Assembly (NCBI GenBank): GCA_977018835.1
Contig: OZ361256.1
Span: forward strand, 2,356,001-2,420,000
DNA: 64,000 nt
Source of the DNA: Minutocellus sp. GHC0000111
Taxonomy: Eukaryota
Direction: 5' to 3'
Position numbers and translations under genes: made by a program. Below are positions 18,166-47,169 of the stretch, in pieces. Numbering within the stretch: the first letter of the stretch is position 1; each line of letters starts with the position of its first letter. Below the pieces are notes generated by a model. The model saw only the letters and a program-made list of their open reading frames with translations. It searched no databases and was not told the DNA's origin.

Positions 18166-21100
18166 CTATCGCCTGAACAAGTCTCGGTGACCTTGCACAT
18201 ATGAAATCACCTCTGTTGGATCCCAACTATCCCCCGTCACACCATACCCGCTGACGTAGGCGTCTACGAACGGAGATGGCCGCAAAGATGTGATGTAATC
18301 GAACGACCTCAGTCCAGCCGATCCAGGACCAAGTAATCTAATGCCATCGCGTTCTCTTACTCTGCTCATTGCAACAAGGATAGATGTATGTCCCATCTGG
18401 CAGGCCGAAACTGGTCTCTCACAAAGGGCAATAATAATCTTCTCGATTGTCCGTCCTTCTAATAAATTAACAATGAAGCACATCGATTAGACCAAATATC
18501 ATTCAATGAAAGTTAAAAAGTTGAAGCCCCCCTGGCAACTCACCTGCTTTGTGAATCGTTACCGCAAACCCCAACTCACAACGAATGCGATCCCGGACCT
18601 GAACCTTCGACGGAGGATACCCCGCATCGCGATCCCCGCGAACCGCGCGACTGTGCCACTCAGAAAAACGTGGTTGGCAGGTGATAGGTACTATTACCCG
18701 AGACGCAAGCCCAGTCTGTCTATCACGCTCCGAGACACGAGGCAATCCACCCCCATTCCCTCCAACAGAACGTATAACCCGTTCAAACTCCCGCACGCAA
18801 CAGTGACCGCCAAGTGGAACCTCAACGTTCACTGATCTCGGAGGGGTAATAGTCAAGACGGTCCCAGGAGGGCTGCTAGCCACTTGCTGTCTTACTATCG
18901 CATCCTCCTCAGGCGAGCTCATAGAGACGGAATGATAAACAACAGACGAGCCGTTTGCCAAATTGAATCTGGCGATGATTAAAAATCAAAGAGGGAGGAA
19001 AAGAACGCAACATCAGAATAAATTATTAGAAAATATCAAAGACATACGTACAACATGCACATGACATAGGCGAACTGCAAAATAAAATACAAAAACTGTG
19101 AGAACTCACGAAGGACAAAAATTAGCAGTTATGAACCCAGGCGCCCCAGCAACAAAATACTCGAAAAAGCTCGGATCGTCGAGCGCGCGGGCCCGTCACT
19201 ATCGAGAGGTCTGCCCCTCCACTGCTTCATATCCAAACGCCATCGCAGCACACAGGTCCCTCGTAGCCTGGCAAACGAAACAGCCCGGGAATGCACAAGC
19301 GCCAGCCTCTCTTGATTAGTGGATACCAAAACCGGAGCGGACAACCAGTCAAGATTACGATCAAGGTCGGCAGGCTGTAACACCTTATAACGCATTAAAT
19401 CCCTAACTCTGATTGCCTCGCCGCGCCACATCCGCATCACGAATTCTGTATGGTCAAGGTCCGTAGACCGATGTTGTGTGGTAAGAGGCATCCAAACAAA
19501 AGCCTTGATCAAAGCAAGCCCTCGCCTCATCGAGGACACAGGGCTATACCTATTTCTCAGCACCGCCCAAGTTCTTCTCGTAAATAGCGAGTTGTTGCCT
19601 TCAGTAGTGGCATCGTACACCGCCATCTCCACTGCCCCTTGGCAGATCGAGATGGCTTTGACCGGAGGAAGTTGCCTGAGATCCCCAAACTTAAAGAAAA
19701 CGACATCACGAATAAGCAAATAGATACAGCGAATGAGACGAAGATAACTCAAAAGGGAAACACTACATGCACTTACCAGCAAGATAGATACACCACCGAA
19801 AGGTGCATCCAGACTTGTAGCTTGTCTCAGCCTAGAGTCAATCACTGAAATCAGCTGGGGAGTCAACATTGACATCTCATCCACCAACAAACAACACATG
19901 CTATCAACACAAATACTATCTCTAAATTCCTGGAGGCGGGCCGAGCTCAACGGACGAATCCGAATTTTACATGCACGGCAGTCCTCCTCTCCGTCGTCTG
20001 CTTTCTCGGCAAAAGGAATCTGAAATAAAGAACAAAGCGTCTGTCCTCCAATATGGGATGCAGCTACACCGGAATAGGCTGTCGACACAAGGGCTCCAAA
20101 CCCACATATGTTACACATGCGCTTAATCAACTGCACCAAATATGACTTGCCAGTGCCCGGTCCCCCCGTGACAAGAAGACACGTTGGGTGTGCTGTCGCA
20201 CCGCCACCAGTGTTCCCAACAAATCTAGAATGCAAGAAGCGTAAAACCGCCAACTGATCTCGCGGCGGTTCTCGTCCTCCTTCCAGGATAAAATCTCTAA
20301 TAAACTCTCCAAAACTCCCATTGTTCACTCTCTGATTGGTCATGGTCAACGGCAAGCCTCGTACTCTGTGTGCACCCGAAGTCAACTGCTCAGTCAATGC
20401 CTCCGCTGCTCCATCAGGCAGCGTCGTCACCAGCGATGCAGTGGTCCTGGACCCGGCGCTATTCTGACAGGAAAGTCGAGAGACATCATCGATCTGATGA
20501 GATTGATGATGCACATAGTCGCACATTTTCCATGCATTACGAATTTGAGCAGAAGTTAGATTCTCCTCCTCCCATCGTAATAGATAACCCTTGAGCATCT
20601 CGGAGAACGACGCACCATCGTCTCTAGCAGCGCCTCGGGTAGACCTCCATTTTGTTCTATGTCGAGCACGATAATTGGACAAAGCATCCCTCATCACACT
20701 TGTACACGAATCACGATAAATAGTTCTCATGATAGAAGCATATCGAAATCGGCCAAGAGCATCACTACCCCGCCGAAGATCAGCTATATAAGAAAGGAAA
20801 GCCTGCCAGTCATAACAAAGGCTTACACTCGTCCTAGACCCGGGTCTAAAACACACAAGGTAATAGCGGGCAAAACTATCAGCACGAATAATCCAAGAAT
20901 CTGCGTCCTTGTCAGCTGCGCTAGGCCTTGGTCCCGGCAACATAGGAGCTCTCCCATACATTATCGGCGTACGCTGCTTCGAGCGGATTATTTGCTCATG
21001 CGACTCAAACAAAGGGCAGTCCCGATCAAACTCAAAACGGCGGGTGTATGGCCGTCCCGCTCCCTCGTGACACCTCTTCTTACTCTTGCGTCTGACATCA

Positions 21101-22687
21101 ATCAGAGATGCATATTCGATTCTACTTAAATCCGCCAACGCAAACCCCCTATACTGATATTGCCATGACTGGGTGACCAAAACAGACCGTCCGTCACGTC
21201 CGGTCACTATGTCCCCTGGGCCAAACTGGTCTACCGACACAAAAGGCAGTGGATCCACGTCCATGCCTTCCGCCAGATCAGCGTGACTCGGCAGATCATC
21301 CATACGCTCCCCGGAACCAAGGAAATCTACGAATCTGATGGCTGCATCCCCCCTGAATGGTACAAAGGATTCTGACGTAACGGCTACCTTAAAACCCAAC
21401 AAAGCCGATGCAGCCTGGACATCACTAACCTCCATGATGACGTTGAGCTTATTCAGAAGCCGAGTCAAGAAATGCTGCACAGTTCGACTAATGCTCTCCT
21501 CTGCGGTCTCATCAGCACGATGAAATAAACTAGGGTAGCGTATTACATCTGAAAAAGATTGATGGGCCACGCTAAGATCGTGCACCAGCTGCCTCTTGTT
21601 CTTATTCAGATACGGCACGAGGTACAGGCTCGCCAACCGGGATTCTGTTGAACCACCTAGAGGGACTACGGCAGAATGGCATCGTATTGCAGCCGTGAGC
21701 ACTGGATTGTACGGCACCACCCACTCATTTCGAGTAGGCAACCTCGTCCTAACCCGGTCATACAGCGCTAAAAGGCGATCCGGACTTAAGGCCCTCAATT
21801 GCGCCAACTGAGTAAATGTAAGAGACATTCCAGAGGACTCCATAAGCTCCTGTACACACAAATGCGGATTCGCCTTAAAGTCAAGAGTGGGTGGTAAATC
21901 CCGCTGCAATCGCCGCTTCAACTCCCATCGGATCAGCCTTCTCTCAGGAGGTGCCAACGGCCAATATAGTTCACTGCCTGCACAAGGCGCCTCCACATCT
22001 GACACTGGAGTAACAGATGCATCGTTCCCAGTCACAAGTTGAAACGGTTTCGTGCCGCATTGTTGTTCCCATGGCGCATCAAATCTACAACCGTCTTCAC
22101 CATGTCTGCCTTTGTGACAGGTGTCGCGGTGACGGTGTATGCCATTGCAACAAATGCACTCCTCCACATCTCCTCGAAAGCCGGCAGCATCATACAAAGG
22201 AGATCGCGCTACACCCAACGCGGGCCACACACACCCAGACTCGTCTGCTAGGCCTTCCAGCCTAGCTTCGCTTCTTACCAAATCCCGCACATGCATCCAC
22301 CTAGGTAACTCGGCAACGTACATCTTGTCCATCGCATCTGCCAAAACGCTGCGAGCCGTCGAATGATGAGCGCCACCTTCTAGCATGCGGGCAGTCAGAC
22401 CACCCCACAACAAAGCGTGAAAATGAAGAGAGCCGCGCCCCTGGGCCTCTACAACCCCAAAACACGCTCTACACCGACCAAATGCACCTTTAGGGCGCTC
22501 ACCGAAGTAGGTGGTCTTTCTATCGCAGCCCCTATCACTCGTCAAATATGAAAAATCAGTACAACCAACAAGGGCGCTCACAATGTCGCCTATCAGATCA
22601 CAAAAACCAACTGCCGCGGCAACGGGGTTCCGCTGGGCCGACCGCACACGACAGGCATGGGAACAGTCAATAGTAACAAGACCGCCC
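18166..22687 (-). pseudogene. Helitron RepHel transposase (HUH Rep + PIF1 helicase), 5'-truncated, 3 introns, 1 frameshift
   Basis: Rep motifs: NPVAAA, FGVVEAQGRGSLHFHALLW (HUH), HRHRDTCHK...CRF, YLVPYLNK (Y2). PIF1 motifs: TGGPGTGKS, AYSGVAA..IGGQT, VDEMSM, PFGG..FGDLRQLPPV, LTTQHR, LANGS, FAVTIHKAEGRTI, VAMSRVR. Introns at 19690-19776, 18969-19109 and 18459-18543. Frameshift near 19190. The frame stays open up to the LTR at 22688. Confidence 0.93.
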
Positions 22688-22883
22688 TGCTAAGAGGTCC
22701 TAAAGCTAAGCTAGATAGATATAGCTAGTAGAGGTTAATAGGACCTACGTAGATGAAAAATGGGCCATCGGAGATGTCGTTGGCCCATGGATCAACGGTC
22801 AGGAGAGGGCACTGAGTCAGTGGTCTGATCACCGTACGTACCGTACGTATGTATACGTACGTACGTATCCCACGGTGTCAACA
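22688..22883 (-). repeat. 3' LTR (196 bp)
   Basis: TGCTAAGAGG...GTGTCAACA; direct repeat of 28688-28885 with 6 substitutions and one 2-bp indel. Confidence 0.97.
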
Positions 22884-22894
22884 CACCCTCGCAG
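22884..22894 (-). promoter_or_regulatory. Polypurine-tract-like plus-strand primer site (CTGCGAGGGTG)
   Basis: Immediately precedes the 3' LTR on the element's sense strand. Confidence 0.75.
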
Positions 22895-22931
22895 ATCAAT
22901 GACTAGTGCCATTGAATCTACATGTAGAGTC

Positions 22932-25900
22932 CTAATTGGAATCTACATGTAAGTAGACTGGTCGCATGTCGACATGGTAGCGGGCGGGATGGTGCTTTGT
23001 AAAATAATCGGCCAAATTTTGCGGTCCTTTCCGCCAGCACACCTGGAATTGTCGTTGCTCTATGCGATCTTGGACCCAGCAGAGTCTCATGTCCATAGCC
23101 TTAGACCGTCTTTGCTTGACGCGATTCCAGATGCTGTAGAGTTGTCAACGACGATAGCAGTAGGGGGCTGCGGGTGACCCATTTCTTCTAGTGCTGCCCG
23201 GATTGGCACCACTGCTGCATCTTTCATGTTGAAAAATAGTCCTCCCAATTCGGCTTCAGCGGCTGAGGACATTGCATGCTTGATGACATCGGCATTGACG
23301 AGGATGGCTCCATTCATTGGTGGCATGGGATCACTTGAGTCAGGCTGGCGGTGCGGGTCCTTAGGTTGGGAGCTTAGGTAGAAGTGCCCACCGAGCTTGC
23401 TTCTTGATTTCGGGGCTGATGAGCAGGAGGCGTCGCCATGTGCATGTGGGATCATGTCTGACTTGACGTGTCGAATGACTGCATCGGGATGGGTTGCAAG
23501 GCAATCTAGAAGCTTCTTGGCATCTTGTCGAGTGCGCTCGGTAGCTTTGGATTGTTCCGCTGAGATGCCATTGAGCGCCGGTAAAATTGTTGAATCAATT
23601 GCTCGACCATAGTGCAAGGAGCTGCCCACCACCTGTTGAATTTCGTTGATGCCTTTGGCGTCGAGTGGTGGTGAGTCGTCTTCCGGTTCTGGCAGCTGGG
23701 GTCCCGGGCCATGCGTCGGACGATTCCATCGACATGGCGCATGCTCGGGCCGTGAGGGGCGGTCGTGTTGGAACTTGTGGCGCATCTCCTTGACGTAGTT
23801 AGGCATAGATAGATCCACCCATTTGGCCTCGTAGTTCCACTCGAGTTGAATGCCACAACAAAGTCGGCCTTCCCAATCGGTAGTGATCTTGTGCTTGGAG
23901 TTGAGGGCCTGAATGAGATGGTCTGCGTGCTCTTTCCCGACACACTTTACTCCAAAATCGTCAACGGTTAGGCAAAAGGTAATTGGGCGGGTTTTGTGCC
24001 TCCAAAGGCCGGCAGTGCGCTTGCAAGGGAAATAGCCATGGGGTTTGAGATGCTTGACAAGTTGATCGTAGGCTAGGCGCCCTGCCTGGGGTAATCCATG
24101 CATTCCGCCATCGATTCTGACCAATACTCGACCATTCTTTACTTTGTCGTGGAGGTCGTAGGCTTCCATGACTTCGTCGGGGATGAGAGCTACTGGCGCC
24201 CACATCCATTCTGGCTCTGGCATGGTGCTGTTGAGATAGAAGTCACTGATGTCAATTCCCATGAAACGAGCGTTGTCTGTAGAGATGACGCTGTTGAAAA
24301 GCAACTTTGCAGTCAACATTTCAGCGGTCGGGGTCGAGACTGTACCAGGGTAATGAATTTTGTCGCCTCCTGCAGTCCATCGAACTCGATTGGGATTTGG
24401 TTTATGGGAGCGATAGTCGGCGACAATGCGGAGGCATGTGGCTTTTTCCCCCGAGGCAGTTCGGACCAGTGGACGAAAGCCATTGTATTGGAGGGAATGC
24501 TAGCACTGTTTCCAACTCGGCCGTCCGTTAGCCGTCCAATTTCATCGATGTTTGCTTGAATGAATTGGTCCCTCATGTTCGTTTTGAGGAGGTCGCGGTA
24601 TTCAAGCATTGCACCAGTATCGGGATGGACGACGGCGTTAGCAAAGTGTTGGAGGTTTGGTAAAGGCGAGAAAGCTGCCATGTTGGCCACGTGGTGGGCA
24701 CTACGACGAGATGATGGCCGTGGGGGAGGGTTCCGATGTGGAATGTACCCTCGCTGACGGTGTGATCGTCGTCGAGGTGGTTTGGCGGTCGATGGTTTGG
24801 ACTTGCTTGTCGATTTTGCTGGAGCTGGTAATGTTGGAGTGGTATCGATCGTTGGAGACTTGCGTTTACGTTGCCGACGGGAGGTGGGGGCATTGGAACT
24901 TTGATTGGATGTTACGACGGTTGCATCGTCGTCATGATTGTCATCATCGTCGCCGTTGGGCTCGTCTACTGCAGCCAAAGGATTGTAGTAGTTGGAAGAA
25001 ACTGACGAGCGAGGTGGCGCGTTGGATCGACGTGATCGACGGCTTTCAGTGGTGGCTGCATCATGTGTGGAGGATTTTGCCACCCTCGGAGGTTGCTGGG
25101 GCTGAGGTAACGGAGCGTTGGGGTTGGAGACAAGGTGACGGCCTACTTCAGTCTCGTTCATCTCTTCTACGTCGTCGTCCTCGTATTTGATTTTGTAGTA
25201 CTTATACTTCTTGTCAAATGCAACGACTCTACCCTTGTAATTGCGATCTCCAAACACTTTGGCGACGATGGTACCGAGGAGGAATCGTTGGGAGTCGTCA
25301 TCGTTCTCCAGCACCCTCGGAGCTGCGGTTGTCTGCATCGTCTCATCAGAGGCGGAGGTGGCAGATTCTGCTGGGGTCACGCTGTTGAAAATCTCGGAGA
25401 GCTTTTCTAAAGCTTGACGATGCTCGTCTCGAAGGGGAGCAAGGGGTGCCGCTGGATGTGGATTCTGTAGAGCGTGCAGGAGTTCATGAGCTGCGACTAT
25501 TGCTGCATCGGCCGACGACGTTTTGGGTACCGGAATCATTTTGGGGAGCCAGACGAGTGTGTTACCAGTGCGTTCCGCCCGAGTTTCCTCAATCCAAACC
25601 TTGTAACACCGGGAGTGTTCCATGGCTGGACCGACATAGTACCCATCAACGCCATGCGGGGACCAAGAGCCGCGTGCCGAGGGCATCTCGTGAAAGATGA
25701 CCTTGCATCCGAGGGGGCCGAGAGGCGTGCGATTGAAATCAAAGCCGCCATTGAGTTGCTCGTACGCTGATAGTCGAGGGTTGACTCGGGATGCTCTCAG
25801 GAAATTGAGGGTCATTACCGCCTGCTCCAGCAATTTGTCCCACAAGATGAGGGGAAAGTCGGGATCGGTACCACAGAGAATCGCAATGAAATGATTCTTA

Positions 25901-27000
25901 AAGGTTCGAATGGCTCGTTCGGCCGCATTTCGGCGGTGGGAGTGCGTTGGGGTCAATTGAAAATCTACATCCTTTTCTTCCATGAACTCCTTCAGCTCTC
26001 GACTCACTTCATTGTCCAATCGTTGCAATTTTGGGCGAAATCCTCGCTTGGAGAGGTGTTCGAAAATAGTTTGGTGCGCTCGGCGCATTTCCGTTCCCGA
26101 TCGGCTTTTCATTGGTTCGGCCAAGATGCTGTTGGAGTCATAGTCATAGACGACCATTATGTGCTGGTGGCCAGAAATAGACGATGCCAAGAAACGGCCG
26201 GGCTGATCTGAGAAGATCTGGCCCGTTATGTCATGACAATCAGCAAAGACATAGTTGGTGCGCTGTTGGTGTTGTGCCGGGTGGAGATCCTGCTCGGTTT
26301 CGTCCACCCCAGGGAGAGATTTTGGCGTAGCCATCGACCGTTTGGGCTTGGTCGACCTGATGTTCTTGCGCTGCTGGTCTAAGTGACCTTTAATCATCGG
26401 TATCGACTGTGGCATGTGCTTACGTACAAGCTTTGATGTGAGGCCTGGCCAAGATCTATAAAATCCCGCATCGATTGCTTTGCACCAGGTGGATAGCTGA
26501 GGACTGCCAGCGCACCAATGTAAAAAGGCTACACGTTCTGGAACCGTCTCCTGGGCAATTGCGGCGTTGGCAGCATGTTGGATGACGTTGGGGCCGGGGA
26601 GCGGCGACATGGTGGGCGAGCAATTAAGATCTACCATCCACAATTTCGTTGAGGGGTCTCGTTTACCTTGCAAAATGACGGCATTGTCCTTGGCGATGAC
26701 TACCGAATCCTTATCGAAAGTGGCAACACATCCATCGTCACACAGCTGCCCAATCGATAGGAGCGATGATGCCATATTATTGAAAATATAGGCCTTGCTA
26801 GCCGATGGGAAACCCCAGGGAGGCGAAGCGTGGCCTCGTGGGTGTTCGTCATTGTGCTATTATCCGGAAGGGTGACGCTGATAGGAATTGCTGTCTGTTG
26901 GACGTTGAAAATAGGGCCATCGCACGATAGGCATTGGGGCTTCTGGACAAAATGTCCCGTCGTTCCAGTATCTGCTGCGAGGACGATTGGCTCTTGAGTT
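22932..27000 (-). pseudogene. pol: Copia pol: protease, integrase, Tudor-like domain, reverse transcriptase, RNase H
   Basis: PR: AADTGTTGHF (~26960). IN: IFSDQPGRF, LDNE, HRRNAAERAIRTFKNHF. RT: DISDFYL, GMHGLPQAG, LTVDDFGVK. RH: DAS, SSAAEAE, VDNSTA, NLADYFTKHH. Frameshifts near 26850, 24445 and 23120. Confidence 0.95.
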
Positions 27001-27099
27001 GGAGGTTTGCTTTAGAAAAGCTAACGAAGGCGGGGAGGAGGTGGATTCAGATATACTATCCTCTATTTTATACTGATTAATATCCACCGTCCCTCCCGC

Positions 27100-28386
27100 T
27101 CAGTTACGACGCGAGCTACCACCGCAAGGATTGTACTTGGTGGCGTTATCAACGTGGTTGGGCCCTTTGCAAGTGCATTCAAAGCTGGGGTGGTTGGACG
27201 AATAGCAGCACGTGTGGCAATAATGGCCTCTGGGGAGGATCGACTGCAGTTCCCGCTTCTCCTGGCGGTTGAGGTTAGGACCTTGGCCTGGGAAGTGGCC
27301 GGTGCCGTTCTGCTGGCCACCGCCGCGGTAGCCTCCACTGCCACCAGCATGGTTGCGTCCCTCACGCAGAGCGCGGTTCTCGGCCTTGAGTGAAGCTATT
27401 TCTTGGCGAAGTTTGGCAATGGTATCATCCTTCTCGTTGCTCTTTTTGGCGAGGTTCGCCATCATGGCTTGGTTGGTCTTGAGGGCTTCGGTGGTGTCAG
27501 CCAAAAGGAGATCGGCTCGAGAAAGAAATGGATCGTCCGAGGCCGATGAGGCCAAATTCGCGCCATGATATCCTGCCGCTTCGGTGGTGGTGTTGGCCAT
27601 CTTCTTGTCATGCCAATCGCGGAAGTCCGACTGCATGTTGGCCCACGTGCGTTCGGCCTCCGGTCTGTCGTCCCAGTCCTCGCATGCCTTCTTTGCCAAT
27701 GAGAACCTGCGCACGGAGCGGTAGAGCTTGGAGACCTTTTGCTTGTTGGTGAAGGGTTCGCCGGCCGTTTCAAACGCCTTGAAGACTTTGTTGAATGTGG
27801 CGATGTGGGTGTCGATGGGTCCCCCGTCGCACTGCTTCTCGAGCTGCCTGCTTCTCTAATTCCTCCTTCTGAGTCTCGTTGAATTTCAAGCAGCGATCGG
27901 CAATGCTGTCGATGATTTGGCGGATGGTGACTGGCTGGAAACCGAGCATGTCATCTTCGAGATGATTGATGTAGACAGCGTCGATCGAGTCGAGGAGGAG
28001 ATTCTTGAGCGCCGTGTTGACTTGCTCGTACAAGTTGCAGTGGCCCTTTTCGATGTGACATCCCCGGATTGCACGATCGCGTTGGTCTAGATTGGCCACG
28101 GCGGAAATGGTGGGGCTGGGACCAGGATTTGCCGGAGGCACATGTGGTCGGCCGTTACTTTTGGTGGTGTGTTCGGCATCGCTGACGACGAGGCCCAAAT
28201 GGCCGAGGTCATGTGGTCATTGTGCCCTGCTGGAATGCTGGCCGCCGCTTGTTGAAGTTCCTTGAGCGCTTTGGCAACACGCTCGCGTTGGGGAGGTTGT
28301 CCTGGGTCATTCATGCGTGTGATTAACTTGGTGGGGAGAATCGGCGCTGCGCCGAGAGGTTGGCCAAAAACTGCGTCGGGATTCAT
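27100..28386 (-). pseudogene. gag: Copia gag, fragmented
   Basis: Fragments ALKNLLLDSIDAVYINHLEDDMLGF, ACEDWDDRPEAERTWANMQSDF and Zn-knuckle-like HYCHTCCYSSNHPSFEC...H lie across three frames. Confidence 0.85.
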
Positions 28387-28678
28387 GCTGGTGTTTCAGT
28401 CAGCGAAGACAGGCAGCACGCGGCGGTGTTGCTGCGAGACGTGTGATCGACAGAAGGTTCGATCCAGAGAAGTGTGATCGATTGGATGGGTCGATCTGGT
28501 CAGGACTTTCGGGGAAGGGATTGGATCGTCGTTCCAATATTGTCGAAAGAAACGGTCGTTTTGGCCGATTGAAGATGTGTCGGTTTTTCTTGCGCGTGAC
28601 GACGAGTGAGAACCAACCCAAGACAAACCGGTGAGGTGCGAACCGAAATGGGGCGAGCACGGGTGGAAAAGATGTATC

Positions 28679-28687
28679 ACGTAGGTC
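28679..28687 (-). promoter_or_regulatory. Primer-binding-site position, complementary to the element's own LTR
   Basis: Sense-strand GACCTACGT directly after the 5' LTR, with no TGG tRNA-type start. Its exact complement lies inside the LTR at 28742-28750. Confidence 0.6.
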
Positions 28688-28885
28688 TGCTAAGAGGTCC
28701 TAAAGCTAAGCTAGATAGATATAGCTAGTAGAGGTTAACAGGACCTACGTAGATGAAAAATGGGCCATCGGAGATGTCGTTGGCCCATGGATCAAGGGTC
28801 AGGAGAGAGGGCACTGAGTCAGTGGTCTGATCACCGTACGTACCGTACATATGTATACGTACGTACGCATCCCACGGCATCAACA
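28688..28885 (-). repeat. 5' LTR (198 bp)
   Basis: TGCTAAGAGG...GCATCAACA; matches 22688-22883. Confidence 0.97.
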
Positions 28886-29323
28886 GAAGTGTTTGATGAA
28901 TTGAGTGAGCAGCACTTGATGCTCGACTCGAGCGTTGAATCCTCGAGAAGTAATGCCAGTCAGTCTTCGACGGCGTCGAGTTGGCAGAGTGAATCGGCTG
29001 AGGATTTTTCAGTCGGTATTATCGAGGTGTTAGAGGCAGTCGAAGCTGCTGAGATCATTGCCGATCTCTCAACGTCGAGGGAAGTGTTTTCCGCATTTGA
29101 CGATGGAACACGTTGTGCGGAATGCAATCGCGAATTCGATTCGGAGGGTTTAGTTTGGAAGATCCACTACAATAATTGCGCGTCGTGTTCGGTCTCCATT
29201 TGTCCCGCCTGTTATTTGGTGGTTCCTATGATGAACGGCAAGATGTGTGGTTGCTGCGGCGAGTGGCATTGCGACAACTGTTACAACGATCATGAGATTG
29301 AAAGTGGCTTCATTGACGAGTAA
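28886..29323 (+). pseudogene. Cys-rich zinc-finger ORF, 5' end cut by the LTR
   Basis: CAEC...H..NCASCSVSICPAC...CGCCGEWHCDNC. The upstream part of the listed ORF is LTR sequence. Confidence 0.55.
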
Positions 29324-30163
29324 AAGCGGAAGTGCTGAAGTCCTCTCTTTTCAGCGCATCAAAAAAGACCGGCTGTAGATGTAGAGTTGATGCACGGATG
29401 TCCACAATTTCTCGGTCATTGTTTGTTTTTTTGTACGTAAATTAGACATGAACATGTGTGCATGCGTTTTTGATTGCTGCTGCGGCTTGACATGCTGGTT
29501 GTTTTGACATGCTGCGGATTTGATGAGGCGCCGTCATTCACAAGCACATTTACTATTCCAACGGGGCTTCAACAGTAGATCTCGTGTGAAAGCTGAGGCC
29601 TAGGTGAATGGTTTTGTCTATGTGGGCATTGGCACCACCACCATTGTGGTCGTGTAGTTGAAATTTGAAGCGAGGACGCAAAGGCATTTTGTCATAGAAG
29701 CTTCTACCGAAGCAAGCTACTAGTACGGAGATACAGGTAGTTTGAAAGTGAAGTTAAGTCTATGCACATATATTTTTTCGTTCATTCATTGGTTTAGGGC
29801 AATCATGTAATATGCGGTAGGTAACGAAACACCCCTCGAGGTGTGTTGAGGCCAACGTAATGCACTTTCAAGAGACAATGGCGCGCCTGGAGCACGGAAA
29901 ATGAAGTTTCGGTGGGAGATGCGCGAGCGGGAGACATGCTAGATGCGCGAGCGTTAGATGCTCCGTAGCTACGTAGATCGCGCAGCGTTAGTGTTAGCGA
30001 GCTTTTTGCGCGAGATTGACGACGTGTCCACAATGTTTCTGATAAGCGGATGGTTGAAGTGAAATCTGTCTGACATGCTGGATGACACCCGGCGCATGTG
30101 TGGCACGCTGATAAATTCGCTTTTGTGTCCTGCCTGCCCTTGGGGCAAAAGAAGCTGCTATCG

Positions 30164-30459
30164 ATGACAGGAATTGGATCAATCCCAAGCCACGAAAGCA
30201 CCCTTGTCGTCCACATGTTGGAATCAGATGGCGAGATTACTAGCACATGTTCGAAGCATTCGGAACCGATGTCGGAGGTGCTTAGCAAGTGCCACGAGAA
30301 ACGAAAGAAAGCAGACTCAGGCACCTACAGGTGTCTAATGGACGGCGAGCGCGTGTCACCCAAAAGTGAGAACATGAAGACAGTCGGTGATTGTGCTTTA
30401 GAGTGCGAGTCAGACGGCGTGTGTTGCAGTTGACCTGTTTTGCCGAGCAGGTGGGTGGA
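30164..30459 (+). pseudogene. SUMO/Rad60-like ubiquitin-fold relic
   Basis: PMSEVLSKCHEK...YRCLMDGERVSP...KTVGDCALE, followed after frameshifts by VDLF/AEQVGG (SUMO-type Q-x-GG). Confidence 0.65.
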
Positions 30460-31316
30460 AGTTTTGTAGCCTTTGATCCTCCTGAGACGGTGACTCGACA
30501 CGTGTGCGCAAGCACATCAGCAAGCAGTGGTCCAGGGATGATGTTCTTAAATGGATTCCTGAGCCTGTTTCTTCTTCGGCGTGGACTTGGTTTTGCGCGC
30601 GCCGATCGATGCTGTGGGGTTTTTGCACTGACTGGCATTGGCCATGGTTGAGCGTGGGCAAAGGAACATGTGTTTGACTTTTCCGGTGCATCTGTTAATG
30701 AAAAATGAGCATTAAGGAAGTGCTACGGAATGTGGAAGGAGACGCAGATCCCGTGCCGATTCGATCAGCAGCATGTCATGTTTGCCATGCTGCGCCAGGA
30801 CATGTGCTGCTCCAGCATGTCTGATTTTTTTTAAACGTGAGTCGTATGAGTCGACTGTCTCGGCAAGACAGGCCTGTCTTGAAAGTAGCCGCCGCATGGG
30901 TTGGAGTGCTCGACTCTCACATTCCTCATCTGTAACATCAAGGACATAGCACTTTTTATTGGAGTATTACTACAGAGTTCGCCAAGAGGTATTGTTGCTC
31001 ATCCCCCCAGAATGGTCTGCGTTCGAAATCGTGTCGGCGGGACGAAGCGACCGGTTGTTGCTAGATGGGCCGCGCCCACCCTCCAAGCGGTGACGACTGT
31101 CTGTCTTAGAAGGCACCCGGGCCCACCTACGTAGGTACGAACATATGTACGTACGAACCAAAATTGGTACGTACGGCATGCCGCCGCCGAGCGTATCTTT
31201 TTCTCGAGTGTGTCACTGTGCGTAGTAGCGGACACCATGGCAACGAAGGGGGCACAACAATTGCGCAGTTGAGGACGCTACCTCCTACATCATAGAGACA
31301 CAAAAGAAACAAGAAA

Positions 31317-44457: not shown

Positions 44458-45123
44458 TTACAAACCAGCATTGAAGTCTACAGGGAATCCCAGAAGATAG
44501 TTGATAATATAAGGGTTGTTGTCAAGTTTTTCATGAACCATGAGGGCTAATATGCCCATCATGGCGGCACGGCCGTTGTTCAGCTCAATTGCTCTCTTTT
44601 GCAGCTTGGTATCCTCATCGAAGGTGTCCCAGCCGAAATCAATGTATCCGTTGCGGAAATCACCAGGAAACTCGGCTTCACCAGTCACATCTTTCATCAC
44701 GCTCAATTCCAATAGACCGACAAAGGCTAGAATTTGGACGAAACCAGCTCCTGGTATCTTGGTAAGTGCCGCGATGCCGGTGGGGATGGATTCAAACGGT
44801 GTGCCTTCGAGATCGATATTGCCTGGAAGGCGAACGCCGGCCGACGTCGTCACGTGACCTAGCACAGCAAGCATCGATATCCGACCATGCTTGAGCTCGA
44901 CGTATCGTAGACGATCGAAGCGTTCCTGGTCGGCCTCCTCAAGGAGACCGAGAGGGTCGAAGAAGCCGAGGGGTGGTTGTGCGCCGAGTTCGGACTCAAA
45001 ACTTTGCGCTTGCAGCCCAATATGTGCTGCGTTATCTCGGGGAAAAGATACCGCTGGCGATGTGATGAATGCGCTCACTACGGGAGAGACGGCAAGCAGA
45101 GGGAGGAGGCGTTTGCTATGCAT
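44458..45123 (-). CDS. Lhcf: Fucoxanthin-chlorophyll a/c binding protein
   Basis: VSA-F presequence, GAQPPLGFFDPLG, RLRYVELKHGRISMLA, ELNNGRAAMMG. Confidence 0.97.
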   Translation of the reverse strand: MHSKRLLPLLAVSPVVSAFITSPAVSFPRDNAAHIGLQAQSFESELGAQPPLGFFDPLGLLEEADQERFDRLRYVELKHGRISMLAVLGHVTTSAGVRLPGNIDLEGTPFESIPTGIAALTKIPGAGFVQILAFVGLLELSVMKDVTGEAEFPGDFRNGYIDFGWDTFDEDTKLQKRAIELNNGRAAMMGILALMVHEKLDNNPYIINYLLGFPVDFNAGL

Positions 45124-45686
45124 GGTTTCTATTCAAGTGGTTACGAAAGTTTGGAGAGGAAGGATTTGTATTAGCTCTACTTCAACCTGCGCCATAGACA
45201 CCGATGAGAAGCAATAAAAATGAAAGCTGCGATCGCGAAAGCAGAAAGGCGCCAAGAGCACCAATGTATGGCCAAGACGAAGACGCGAGAACAAACTACG
45301 CCAAAAGGCTGCAAACAAATGCTAAATGAATACTTATACGCAGCTACGTAGTTCTAGAATGTTGTTGTTGACATGCCAAAGTATTCTTACTAATAAAAAT
45401 AATTATGAGAAAGAGCTAAAATCGAACATCTCACAAGAGAAGAGGAGAGTAAACTACCTCTTCCCTCGGAATTAAGTGCCCAATGACGAGCAACCGTTCC
45501 AGCACTTGGTAGGGAGGCTCACGAGCGGGGGTTGGTGTGGGTAATCAATAAAGCAATTTGATATAATCCCTTAGATCATACTTCTTCAGTATGGGTTGGT
45601 TGGTTTGGTATGTAGATATATGTAGAATATTGTCATTGGTGTCGACAATTGTAAATCAGATCAGTAGGTAGATACCGACCGACTGT

Positions 45687-46322
45687 TTACTGAAGGGCAC
45701 CGATGATGGGGAGGTCGGCAACCATGTCGATCTCGTTGAGCTTCTCGTGGACCATGAGGCCGAGGATGCCCATCATGGCGGCACGGCCGTTGTTGAGCTC
45801 GATGGCGCGCTTGGCGAGCTTGGTCTCCTCACCGAAGGTGTCCCAGCCGAAGTCGAGGGCACCGTTGCGGAAGTCACCGGGGAATTCACCGGGCTCGGCA
45901 CCGTTGGCGGAGTCCTTCATGACGAAGAGCTCGAGAGCGCCGACGAAGGCGACGATCTGGAGAAGGCCCTCCTGGGGGATGGCGCTGGGGCCCTGGATGG
46001 CGGCGAGGCCGTTGGGGAAGGAGTCGAAGGAATCACCGGCGTTGTTGATGGCGCCATCGAGGTGGATGCCGGCACGGGTGGTGATCTGGCCGAGGAAGGC
46101 AAGCATACAGATGCGGCCGTGCTTGACCTCGACGTAACGGAGGCGGTCGAAGCGCTCCTGGTCGGCATCCTCGAGGAGGCCGAGGGGGTCGAAGAAGCCA
46201 AGAGGGGGCTGGGCGCCGAGCTCAGACTCGAAGGCCTTGAGGGCGGTGGAGGCCTTGCCGGTCTGGGCAGGAGAGAAGGCAGCGGCAGAGCCGATAAGGG
46301 CGAGGGCGGCGAGCTTGAACAT
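45687..46322 (-). CDS. Lhcf: Fucoxanthin-chlorophyll a/c binding protein
   Basis: MFKLAALALIGSAAAFSP presequence, the same LHC motifs, strong C-ending codon bias. Confidence 0.97.
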   Translation of the reverse strand: MFKLAALALIGSAAAFSPAQTGKASTALKAFESELGAQPPLGFFDPLGLLEDADQERFDRLRYVEVKHGRICMLAFLGQITTRAGIHLDGAINNAGDSFDSFPNGLAAIQGPSAIPQEGLLQIVAFVGALELFVMKDSANGAEPGEFPGDFRNGALDFGWDTFGEETKLAKRAIELNNGRAAMMGILGLMVHEKLNEIDMVADLPIIGALQ

Positions 46323-47169
46323 GGTTGAAAGTTGGGTGGGGTTGTTGCGTTTGCGCAAAAAAGTGAGCTTCCTCCGAGCCAAAAGTGAAGTCAACCGGCC
46401 GGTCAAGCGTCAAGGCGGCGTATCTTCGAGAAGATTTCGGCTCAACTTGCAAAACGTCGACTTTTTGCGACTTGGATTTTCGAAGTATGCTTGCAATTAC
46501 CCAAGGCGTACCTCGCAGCCATCTTTTCGCTGGCGGACGTCTGGCCTGCTTCCGCCTTCATTTTTTCACTTTCGGCATCAAAAGTCACAATTGAGGTGGC
46601 AGGCCTGCCACGACAGATATCCACCGAATGCATCCGAATATCATGCATGTATTATTTGGCCTGAGTTGCAGCTCTCTGGCTCGGCAGCTGTCTCCGTGAC
46701 AGCGAAAAAATGAGGGTGGTGGCCGAATTTGGTCGGTTGGCCGGGTGGCTTTTCCGCCACTGGCGGATGACGGCGGAGGATGCTCCTGGCACGAGCATCT
46801 TGTCCGCCAGCAAGCTCCGTGCTGCTGCCGATCTTCGAATCTACTCGCTTCCTCGCCCTGACACCCCCGTCGCCCGTGGTTGCCAAAAGATTTGTTATTA
46901 ATGGATGGAGATATCGAGGCACCGGCCTCGGTCCCCGTGGATCGCGCCGAGGACGGCGCCGCCGAGGATTCGTCTCGAAACAGCGTCACCGGCGCAACAC
47001 CAACCAACTCACATCGGATGTCACCGCCGCCCCGCCTTGCTCGGCCAACACCATCCCCTCCGAATCGTTCAACTCCTTCCAATGCAGCTTTGGCCGGTGG
47101 GAATTCACAGGGCGTAGCAGAAACCCTGTCAAAAGTTGCTCGTCCTCATCAGCCAAGGCCTCCAGCACG

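Follow-up and report, generated by a model that had tools for sequence, protein, structure and literature searches.

The element and its flanks

The window, that is, the whole stretch of 64,000 nucleotides that we analysed, holds a copia-type element at 22688..28885. It is bounded by a 3' LTR of 196 bp (22688..22883, minus strand) and a 5' LTR of 198 bp (28688..28885, minus strand), which bear TG...CA ends on the sense strand, are 96.9% identical and have precise ends on both sides; no third copy was found within the window. The U3 of the 3' LTR contains a GTAC/GTAT tandem array (22833..22868, plus strand) whose nine RTAY sites are all intact in the left LTR. Directly before the 3' LTR lies a purine-rich tract that is likely the PPT (22884..22892, minus strand). 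After the 5' LTR, at the primer-binding position, there is no TGG start; instead, a 9-bp stretch of the LTR recurs there in inverted form.

The RT-RNase H frame (23087..24499, minus strand) matches RVT_2 with an E-value of 9e-6 and 25.9 bits, below the cut-off of 31.6, which its relative P0002 (59%) clears with 32.8. In this frame 18 of 64 scorable TpA strand-sites have changed, on both strands, and one of the changes turns a tyrosine of the conserved YGL motif into histidine. The pol frame upstream of it (24313..26856, minus strand) gives weak matches to DDE_3 (E 0.011) and SH3_retrovirus (E 0.0012), so that it likely encodes the integrase, and carries a Tudor-like domain; searching the PDB with the integrase region gave no useful match. 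Further upstream, a likely gag region (27100..28386, minus strand) is broken by frameshifts and matches L027 at 75% of DNA positions.

L027, a sister element, comes from an independent metagenome and is the one real relative among 29 metagenome loci; the other 28 were rejected as chance 18-mers without a BLAST match. Its identity to the element is 75% over 816 bp and 89% over a 144-bp LTR core, and an end-anchored, ungapped comparison with the left LTR matches 34 of 45 terminal bases. Further outgroups were sought in viral contigs and in prokaryote genomes, with no match in those searched.

The two flanks are of different nature. On the left, a Helitron Rep/PIF1 helicase gene (19129..22687, minus strand), low in copy number and with nearly all its tyrosines kept, is cut at the LTR, and the N-terminal 889 amino acids of Rep have no match anywhere in the window. 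On the right lies a multi-copy, RTAY-depleted sequence with TA/TG/CA variants (28886..30300, plus strand). Its unoccupied form runs on into other sequence (X9 loose end, X2 record 24), and this continuation was not found in the window either. The flanks share no target-site duplication, with zero to one matches at lengths of 3-7 bp and two at 8 bp.

The LTR pair

Six substitutions and a single 2-bp indel separate the LTRs, exactly as had been claimed in a preliminary description of this DNA. Their polarity rests on one outgroup sequence, L027, which has T at 22739 and 22866, G at 22847, C at 22796 and TA at the site that is TG in the left LTR (22876..22877, plus strand) and CA in the right (28878..28879, plus strand). 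At this last site, in RTAY context, A>G on the plus strand has thus occurred in one LTR and T>C on the plus strand, equivalent to A>G on the minus strand, in the other. Two further sites read CA in the right LTR (28739..28740 and 28868..28869, plus strand, the latter in RTAY context) and TA both in L027 and in the left LTR (22739-40 and 22866-67), T/C differences that the preliminary description had read as TA>CA. Because L027 keeps TA at the TG/CA site and a T at both of the others, the polarity proposed there holds, along with its count of four TpA losses among six substitutions (three of five sites); the outcome that it named as contrary, in which the TG/CA site would be CG and the two others CA, was looked for in the outgroup and is absent. 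At the 28739 site, one sequencing-run contig (X7 record 20) has the letters of the left LTR; such contigs are single records, and the alleles they carry are not family frequencies. The variants listed for these contigs lie about 31 letters or more from a contig end, and X7 records 22 and 23 carry further differences outside that listing.

Both remaining substitutions sit at CpG. One is a CpG-type transition, CA from CG (22847/28849, G/A; 28848..28849, plus strand), with CG in the left LTR and the outgroup; the other is a C>G transversion (22796/28796), which has a 2-bp GA length difference nearby (28803-28804; both within 28796..28804, plus strand). Five of the six derived letters lie in the right LTR and one in the left. 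The LTR is rich in TA (46 of 196 bases within TpA), and the probability of at least four of six substitutions falling at TpA is 0.030 if all changes are transitions and 0.007 if transitions make up 0.67 of them; counting three of five sites, it becomes 0.088 and 0.030, respectively. The TpA excess in the pair is hence above chance (P about 0.007-0.03), and weak when taken alone. Small LTR numbers, two of six substitutions at CpG and a single outgroup all speak against the main reading.

Plain CpG decay of methylated repeats would derive both TG and CA from CG, an origin that the preliminary description had allowed for the TG/CA site. The CG>CA change at 28849 is of this type, and an LTR contig from X13 is compatible with CA, TA or CG at the TG/CA site. 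However, L027 has TA there and not CG, and together with the data on the reverse transcriptase given below this makes CpG decay a very improbable account.

It had also been proposed that the pair, identical at insertion, acts as an internal control for the mutator. This part of the earlier interpretation does not survive, while its TpA>CpA/TpG mutator in the family and its ancestral TA do. Given that there is no target-site duplication and that the flanks come from different loci, the pair is probably a recombinant that joins two family members or insertions; with ends that probably do not stem from one insertion, the LTRs are not a clean internal control, and they also show fewer hits than the interior. 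In addition, TG at 22876-77 is found in the 3' LTR of an RNA-library contig from another sample (X7 record 26); the family may therefore have passed this allele on, rather than the copy having been hit after insertion. A true single insertion, and with it a valid control, would agree with the near-identity of the LTRs and their precise ends, the duplication being absent because integration used two cuts far apart, or because a subsequent deletion stopped precisely at the LTR. We consider it unlikely in view of the missing duplication at 3-8 bp, the unrelated flanking loci and the TG of the other sample, and recombinants of such a kind are described in diatoms in the part of the literature that we consulted (PMC2806351).

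The LTRs under-record the TpA process: 3 of their 22 RTAY sites are hit, versus 8 of 8 in the reverse transcriptase of the same copy. Compared with L027, 6 of 15 interior TAs are CA or TG in the window, and none of 6 the other way. The pair adds only a small, non-coding, polarised confirmation of the mutator, and it is the family of reverse transcriptase copies that supplies the strong evidence.

TpA changes in the reverse transcriptase family and their possible origin

We compared 20 reverse transcriptase copies, the one in the window and 19 sister proteins of 79-98% identity that may include alleles of one locus. TpA strand-cells were derived in 147 of 818 cases (18%), as opposed to 14 of 6856 (0.2%) for other non-synonymous transitions; the 18% is inflated, since a site derived in the window copy was counted only when the TA residue had been observed or had outgroup support. 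At sites where the window keeps the majority residue, the counts are 27/437 for TA, 3/1029 for AA, 9/1363 for CA and 0/1397 for GA. At DNA level, among the 40 variant rows listed, 22 oppose TA to CA/TG and six more agree with CA/TG swaps. The effect is most visible in 19 tyrosine columns comprising 256 cells, with 145 Tyr, 59 Cys, 51 His, one Phe and no Arg, so changes there are almost exclusively transitions (110 Cys/His versus one Phe). Sharing among copies is far from tree-like: 217 of 285 site pairs (0.76) are incompatible with one tree, and shuffles assuming full independence give 0.69 +/- 0.03. Recombination or gene conversion could also produce such sharing. A mutator turning TpA into CpA or TpG in this element family is, we believe, almost certainly real.

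These data bear on several other explanations. For CpG decay, transitions at CpG in the reverse transcriptase do exceed background (about 1% versus 0.2%): 30 of 1000 CpG cells are derived, 21 of them in three mis-polarised columns, and 9 of 966 remain once these are removed by hand. Yet Tyr is held by 102-117 of up to 117 distant relatives at most Cys/His columns, and Arg is absent from the 256 cells, which largely refutes CpG as the apparent source of these changes. Editing of the transcript by an ADAR-like enzyme, or of cDNA on one strand, followed by fixation through reverse transcription, would fit the sequence context, as ADAR favours U before the edited A according to the consulted part of Mettrop et al. 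(bioRxiv 10.64898/2026.01.13.699255). It predicts A>G confined to the sense strand, or hits on a single strand in any given copy; what we see is a balance of 59 Tyr>Cys and 51 Tyr>His, with both kinds interleaved within the window copy, and the same variants in a second repeat, the one in the right flank. This scenario is thus very unlikely.

Error-prone repair synthesis of the polymerase-eta kind leaves A>G at WA, with TA as its hottest context. The hot TA would suit it, but AA stands at background (3/1029) and transversions at TA are nearly absent (one Phe in 256 cells), making its involvement extremely doubtful. An artefact of base calling or assembly at modified TA sites has to be considered too, because the comparison drew on assembled contigs. 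Against it, Illumina libraries (X9 and/or X13) show CA or TG at nine of the nine listed rows within the element where the window keeps TA, and the adjacent Helitron is nearly spared; its likelihood is in our opinion negligible.

The flanking bases grade the process. RTAY sites are changed in 93 of 262 cases (35%), YTAY in 35 of 252, RTAR in 19 of 233 and YTAR in none of 71, a context effect that no site-level permutation matched (0/20000 as extreme). On the 3' side, TAC (26%) and TAT (22%) exceed TAG (7%) and TAA (3%). Some sites in TAG context are nonetheless often hit (13 of 80 in ATAG), so the 3' pyrimidine is a preference and not a rule. The RTAY share falls to 30 of 221 in the element interior and 7 of 83 in the right-flank repeat, versus 374 of 1454 in host genes. 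This index separates the element from host genes; plain TpA observed/expected was rejected as a separator (0.49 in the element, about 0.45-0.7 in host genes). Measured against its relative P0138, the Helitron has 3 of 23 tyrosines turned into Cys or His (none of 11 in RTAY), versus 12 of 20 for the window reverse transcriptase against P0002 (Fisher P=0.003). Two multi-copy repeats are hit and one low-copy Helitron nearly spared, a comparison in which age and chromatin are not controlled.

As an explanation of the whole, we lean towards the following course of events. Each copy of the family would separately lose TA steps to TG or CA, on both DNA strands, probably once integrated and with the lesion made on chromosomal DNA; a host adenine deaminase, possibly of the TadA/ADAT2 kind, would deaminate the adenine of TpA to inosine, which is then read as G, perhaps being targeted to silenced multi-copy repeats; and the three LTR sites would be such hits, the pair itself probably being a join of two separate insertions. 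The likely source of the TA loss is an adenine-editing defence whose only description to date comes from an unrelated alga. RNA libraries include contigs of the element that bear derived letters, so the target may not be silent. For the deaminase chemistry itself we see about even chances. A lesion on T instead of A would leave an identical pattern.

5-formyluracil can pair with G, and TET/JBP enzymes oxidise T. A different chemistry, to which we give a distinctly lesser chance, would have a double-strand enzyme mark the self-complementary RTAY, as N6-methyl-adenine later deaminated or misread or as oxidised thymine pairing with G, the transition arising at replication. Its appeal lies in the palindromic context, in which both flanks count (35% at RTAY, 8-14% with one unsuitable flank, 0/71 with two), and in the absence of double hits at any one tyrosine site, where about 13 would be expected if the strands mutated independently. 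However, the order of TAC and TAT over TAG and TAA fits a TadA-like enzyme too. We would tentatively go further and imagine a diatom "reverse-RIP", in which a repeat-sensing system attacks palindromic RTAY on the double strand of multi-copy DNA, erasing TA and recoding Tyr to Cys or His without stops, with LTR promoter arrays and low-copy elements escaping.

We found no published report of a TpA-directed mutator in diatoms in open PMC and bioRxiv, and a term search for 'TpA' had no hit in a Phaeodactylum mutation-rate paper (PMC6604790) or in bioRxiv 10.64898/2026.07.24.739820. If our reading is true, this would be a second eukaryotic lineage with an A:T>G:C, TpA-directed mutator, acting on retrotransposons, a mirror image of RIP that runs counter to the usual AT bias. 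LTR dating would be distorted and, because elements are killed without stop codons, dead copies would pass as intact; under the reverse-RIP scenario, dating by LTR pairs would underestimate damage and stop-free ORFs would overstate element activity. The RTAY gradient is a concrete fingerprint for testing candidate enzymes, and diatoms are transformable.

Comparison with known systems

In Phaeodactylum tricornutum, intact-looking elements that lack target-site duplications are described as products of recombination (Maumus et al., 2009; PMC2806351). As far as the consulted part of that work goes, ours resembles these CoDi recombinants in being an intact-looking copia element with near-identical LTRs, TG/CA ends and no duplication, and its length and LTR size fall inside the reported range. 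The likeness is one of overall description, and a partner locus of the element was not recovered.

TadA and TadA-derived adenine base editors likewise convert A to G where a T precedes it and, preferably, a C follows, and the derived editors prefer UACG in the portion of the source consulted (PMC8052359). Those systems are engineered or tRNA-directed and act on single strands; their UACG motif includes neither the preference for a 5' purine nor the palindromic RTAY of the window.

The closest parallel comes from Bigelowiella natans, in which integrated DNA of NCLDVs and virophages undergoes TpA hypermutation, for which an ADAT2-like deaminase is proposed, not shown, and RT and DDE domains are noted among TpA-poor genes in the consulted part of the preprint, which mentions neither diatom, LTR, retrotransposon nor trinucleotide; its discussion also summarises RIP (Mettrop et al., bioRxiv 10.64898/2026.01.13.699255). 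As there, TpA>TpG and TpA>CpA affect both strands of chromosomal DNA and are local to selfish DNA, and our changes are almost only A:T>G:C and restricted to TpA, with the Helitron nearly spared. B. natans is a Rhizarian alga whose targets are single-copy viral regions, and the reported rate was measured in mutation-accumulation lines (in some of them about 1000 times the background), whereas the window comes from a likely diatom, its target is a multi-copy LTR retrotransposon, and the RTAY figure of about 35% per strand is a standing load, not a rate. The window also differs in its four-base context gradient and in the near-sparing of LTRs and of a low-copy Helitron.

Repeat-induced point mutation (RIP) of ascomycete fungi changes C to T at CpA, producing TpA. 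The process in the window is like RIP in that dinucleotide-specific transitions accumulate independently across repeat copies and on both strands; unlike RIP, it runs in the opposite direction, removing TpA, making CpA and TpG, and creating no stop codons.

LTR differences and their direction

The copia-type LTR element (22688-28885, 6198 bp, minus strand) is bounded by LTRs of 196 and 198 bp that carry TG...CA ends. A purine tract precedes the 3' LTR, gag is broken, and the pol frame, whose matches to integrase-type domains are weak, is followed by a frame encoding an RVT_2-type RT and RNase H. Between the likely integrase and the RT, pol contains a Tudor-like domain (PF21743, E 7.5e-12, about 25140-25275). 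A 9-bp inverted copy of the LTR segment 28742-28750 replaces the tRNA-type primer site at 28679-28687, which may point to self-priming; the inverted copy also occurs in the sister element L027. The window is eukaryotic and holds two light-harvesting genes (44458-46409, Pfam Chloroa_b-bind), which we take to resemble fucoxanthin-chlorophyll proteins, making a diatom host likely.

Aligning the left (3', 22688-22883) and right (5', 28688-28885) LTRs reproduced the six substitutions and one 2-bp indel of the preliminary description, positions included. Two substitutions are TA versus CA, two form TG versus CA at 22876-22877/28878-28879, one is CG versus CA, and the last, C versus G, is a transversion within a CpG. 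An 18-nt word from the LTR, searched against metagenome contigs, hit 29 loci, only one of them a true relative: L027, an outgroup from an independent metagenome, 75% identical to the element over 816 bp and 89% over the LTR core. Some 200 bp past its LTR, at about 1098-1135, lie telomere-like TTAGGG repeats. In an ungapped alignment anchored at the LTR end, L027 matches at 34 of 45 bases and reads TA at the TG/CA site, so that the proposed ancestral TA is borne out by this one outgroup sequence; elsewhere it has T at both TA/CA sites, and its letters at 22847 and 22796 are G and C, respectively. With this polarity, TpA loss does explain four of the six substitutions (three of five sites), as had been claimed, three of the four events falling in RTAY and the fourth in YTAY (R, purine; Y, pyrimidine). 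The right LTR carries five of the six derived letters. Four TpA losses in six would arise by chance with a probability of 0.007-0.03, according to the transition share that is assumed, or 0.03-0.09 by site: the pattern is real and its polarity correct, yet it is weak alone.

An LTR pair serves as a control only if both LTRs derive from one insertion. The use of this pair as an internal control for the mutator turned out to be unsupported, because comparison of the flanks revealed no target-site duplication at the element's two ends, and the flanks come from different loci. On the left, the frame of a Helitron Rep/PIF1 gene extends up to the LTR, and nothing in the window matches residues 1-889 of P0138, its relative of 1903 aa. 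The right flank is another, multi-copy sequence; in its unoccupied form it runs on into other DNA (a loose end before 28886 in run X9; record 24 of run X2) that was not found in the window. P0137, which matches the cut Helitron at 99.7% identity and has the same start point, hints that another haplotype or assembly shares the Helitron/LTR junction. TG at the TG/CA site also occurs in a 3' LTR contig of another sample (run X7, record 26, no differences over 22855-22925) and may therefore predate this locus; a contig of run X13, which could read CA, TA or CG at that site, has two of the three terminal differences in common with the right LTR. For Phaeodactylum, Maumus et al. (2009, PMC2806351) describe five intact-looking elements lacking target-site duplications as recombination products between family members.

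RNA-library contigs of X7 and X9 (window 22771-22818) represent a related LTR subfamily with a different U3 past 22818. In the X13 RNA library, two contigs meet exactly at the LTR/purine-tract junction (22883/22884) without the usual 30-letter overlap, perhaps owing to cDNA or RNase H ends, perhaps to a tool effect.

Family-wide loss of TpA in the RT

A mutator changing TA to CA or TG is well supported at the level of the family. Our RT search yielded three clusters (92-96% identity) totalling 19 members. Contigs of 0.6-5.2 Mb hold 18 of them and a 3.7-kb contig the other; with the window copy they make 20 copies, and a further 117 proteins, more distant, were used as outgroups. At 19 RT Tyr columns (256 cells) we counted 145 Tyr, 59 Cys, 51 His, one Phe and no Arg, although about 13 Arg would be expected if the two strands mutated independently of the dinucleotide. 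Derived cells amounted to 147/818 at the 64 scorable TpA strand-sites versus 14/6856 for other non-synonymous transitions. Read on the strand whose A changes, the hits were graded by context: RTAY 93/262, YTAY 35/252, RTAR 19/233 and YTAR 0/71. The derived states fit no single tree (217/285 site pairs incompatible; independence predicts 0.69 +/- 0.03), the outcome of separate hits in each copy, though recombination could give the same.

A conservative count, restricted to sites where the window copy has the majority residue, gave 27/437 for TA, 3/1029 for AA, 9/1363 for CA and 0/1397 for GA. WA-type signatures are known from polymerases, and such an origin is excluded by AA being at background. 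CpG decay is excluded by the outgroups; in the RT about 1% of CpG cells are derived (30/1000 including three mis-polarised columns, 9/966 without them). Equal strand use, with both strands mixed within one copy, excludes both transcript editing and the editing of a single cDNA strand. In DNA comparisons with run contigs, 22 of the 40 differences listed are TA versus CA/TG and six more fit swaps; a base-calling artefact is opposed by the Illumina libraries, which carry derived letters at all nine listed in-element sites where the window has TA.

Spared and affected neighbours

Within the same copy, RTAY was changed at 3/22 sites of the two LTRs versus 8/8 RTAY Tyr codons of the RT (Fisher P = 3e-5). 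L027 has 14 of the 18 intact LTR TAs, so that hits shared by the two LTRs are not being missed. The adjacent low-copy Helitron kept 20/23 Tyr (RTAY 11/11) versus 8/20 in the RT (P = 0.003), and the multi-copy right flank is RTAY-poor (7/83 in 28886-30300 versus 374/1454 in genes), these being raw counts from sequences that may differ in age and chromatin.

This second multi-copy sequence (28886-31000) encodes a Cys-rich ORF without a Pfam match, has RTAY at 3/64 in 30001-31000, and shows TA/TG/CA variants at 28951 and 29085-29086. Just upstream of the host gene at 31296, a GTAC-rich array (31126-31180) similar to the LTR U3 array appears intact, and may be a host promoter motif that the LTR has as well. 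The large low-copy region 1-22687 contains the Helitron Rep/PIF1 gene along with numerous compact ORFs (no Pfam match in the six scanned). It has more TA than the host genes and has mutated little, and might represent a giant Helitron carrying cargo.

Possible mechanism and known systems

With editing, a WA polymerase and CpG decay excluded, the remaining candidate is a lesion that arises where TpA is intact in double-stranded chromosomal DNA. The explanation we prefer, at about an even chance, is that a TadA/ADAT2-type enzyme recruited to the chromatin of repeats would deaminate the A of TpA; Mettrop et al. propose such a deaminase for Bigelowiella natans. TadA favours UACG, according to PMC8052359, and the excess of TAC/TAT over TAG/TAA here resembles that preference. 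The main rival, a double-strand marking enzyme acting at palindromic RTAY through methylated A or oxidised T, is less probable than deamination.

The direction of change is reversed relative to RIP, so this is not RIP, and our literature searches (open PMC, bioRxiv) found no diatom report of a TpA mutator. The TpA hypermutation measured in Bigelowiella natans, for which the preprint by Mettrop et al. (bioRxiv 10.64898/2026.01.13.699255) proposes an ADAT2-type deaminase, shows the same change at the same dinucleotide on both strands, whereas here the host group is another, the target is a multi-copy retrotransposon and context is graded. The signature would thus be a variant of the B. natans type rather than an established member, and what is new in the pattern is the RTAY-graded context, the sparing of the LTRs and that of the low-copy Helitron.
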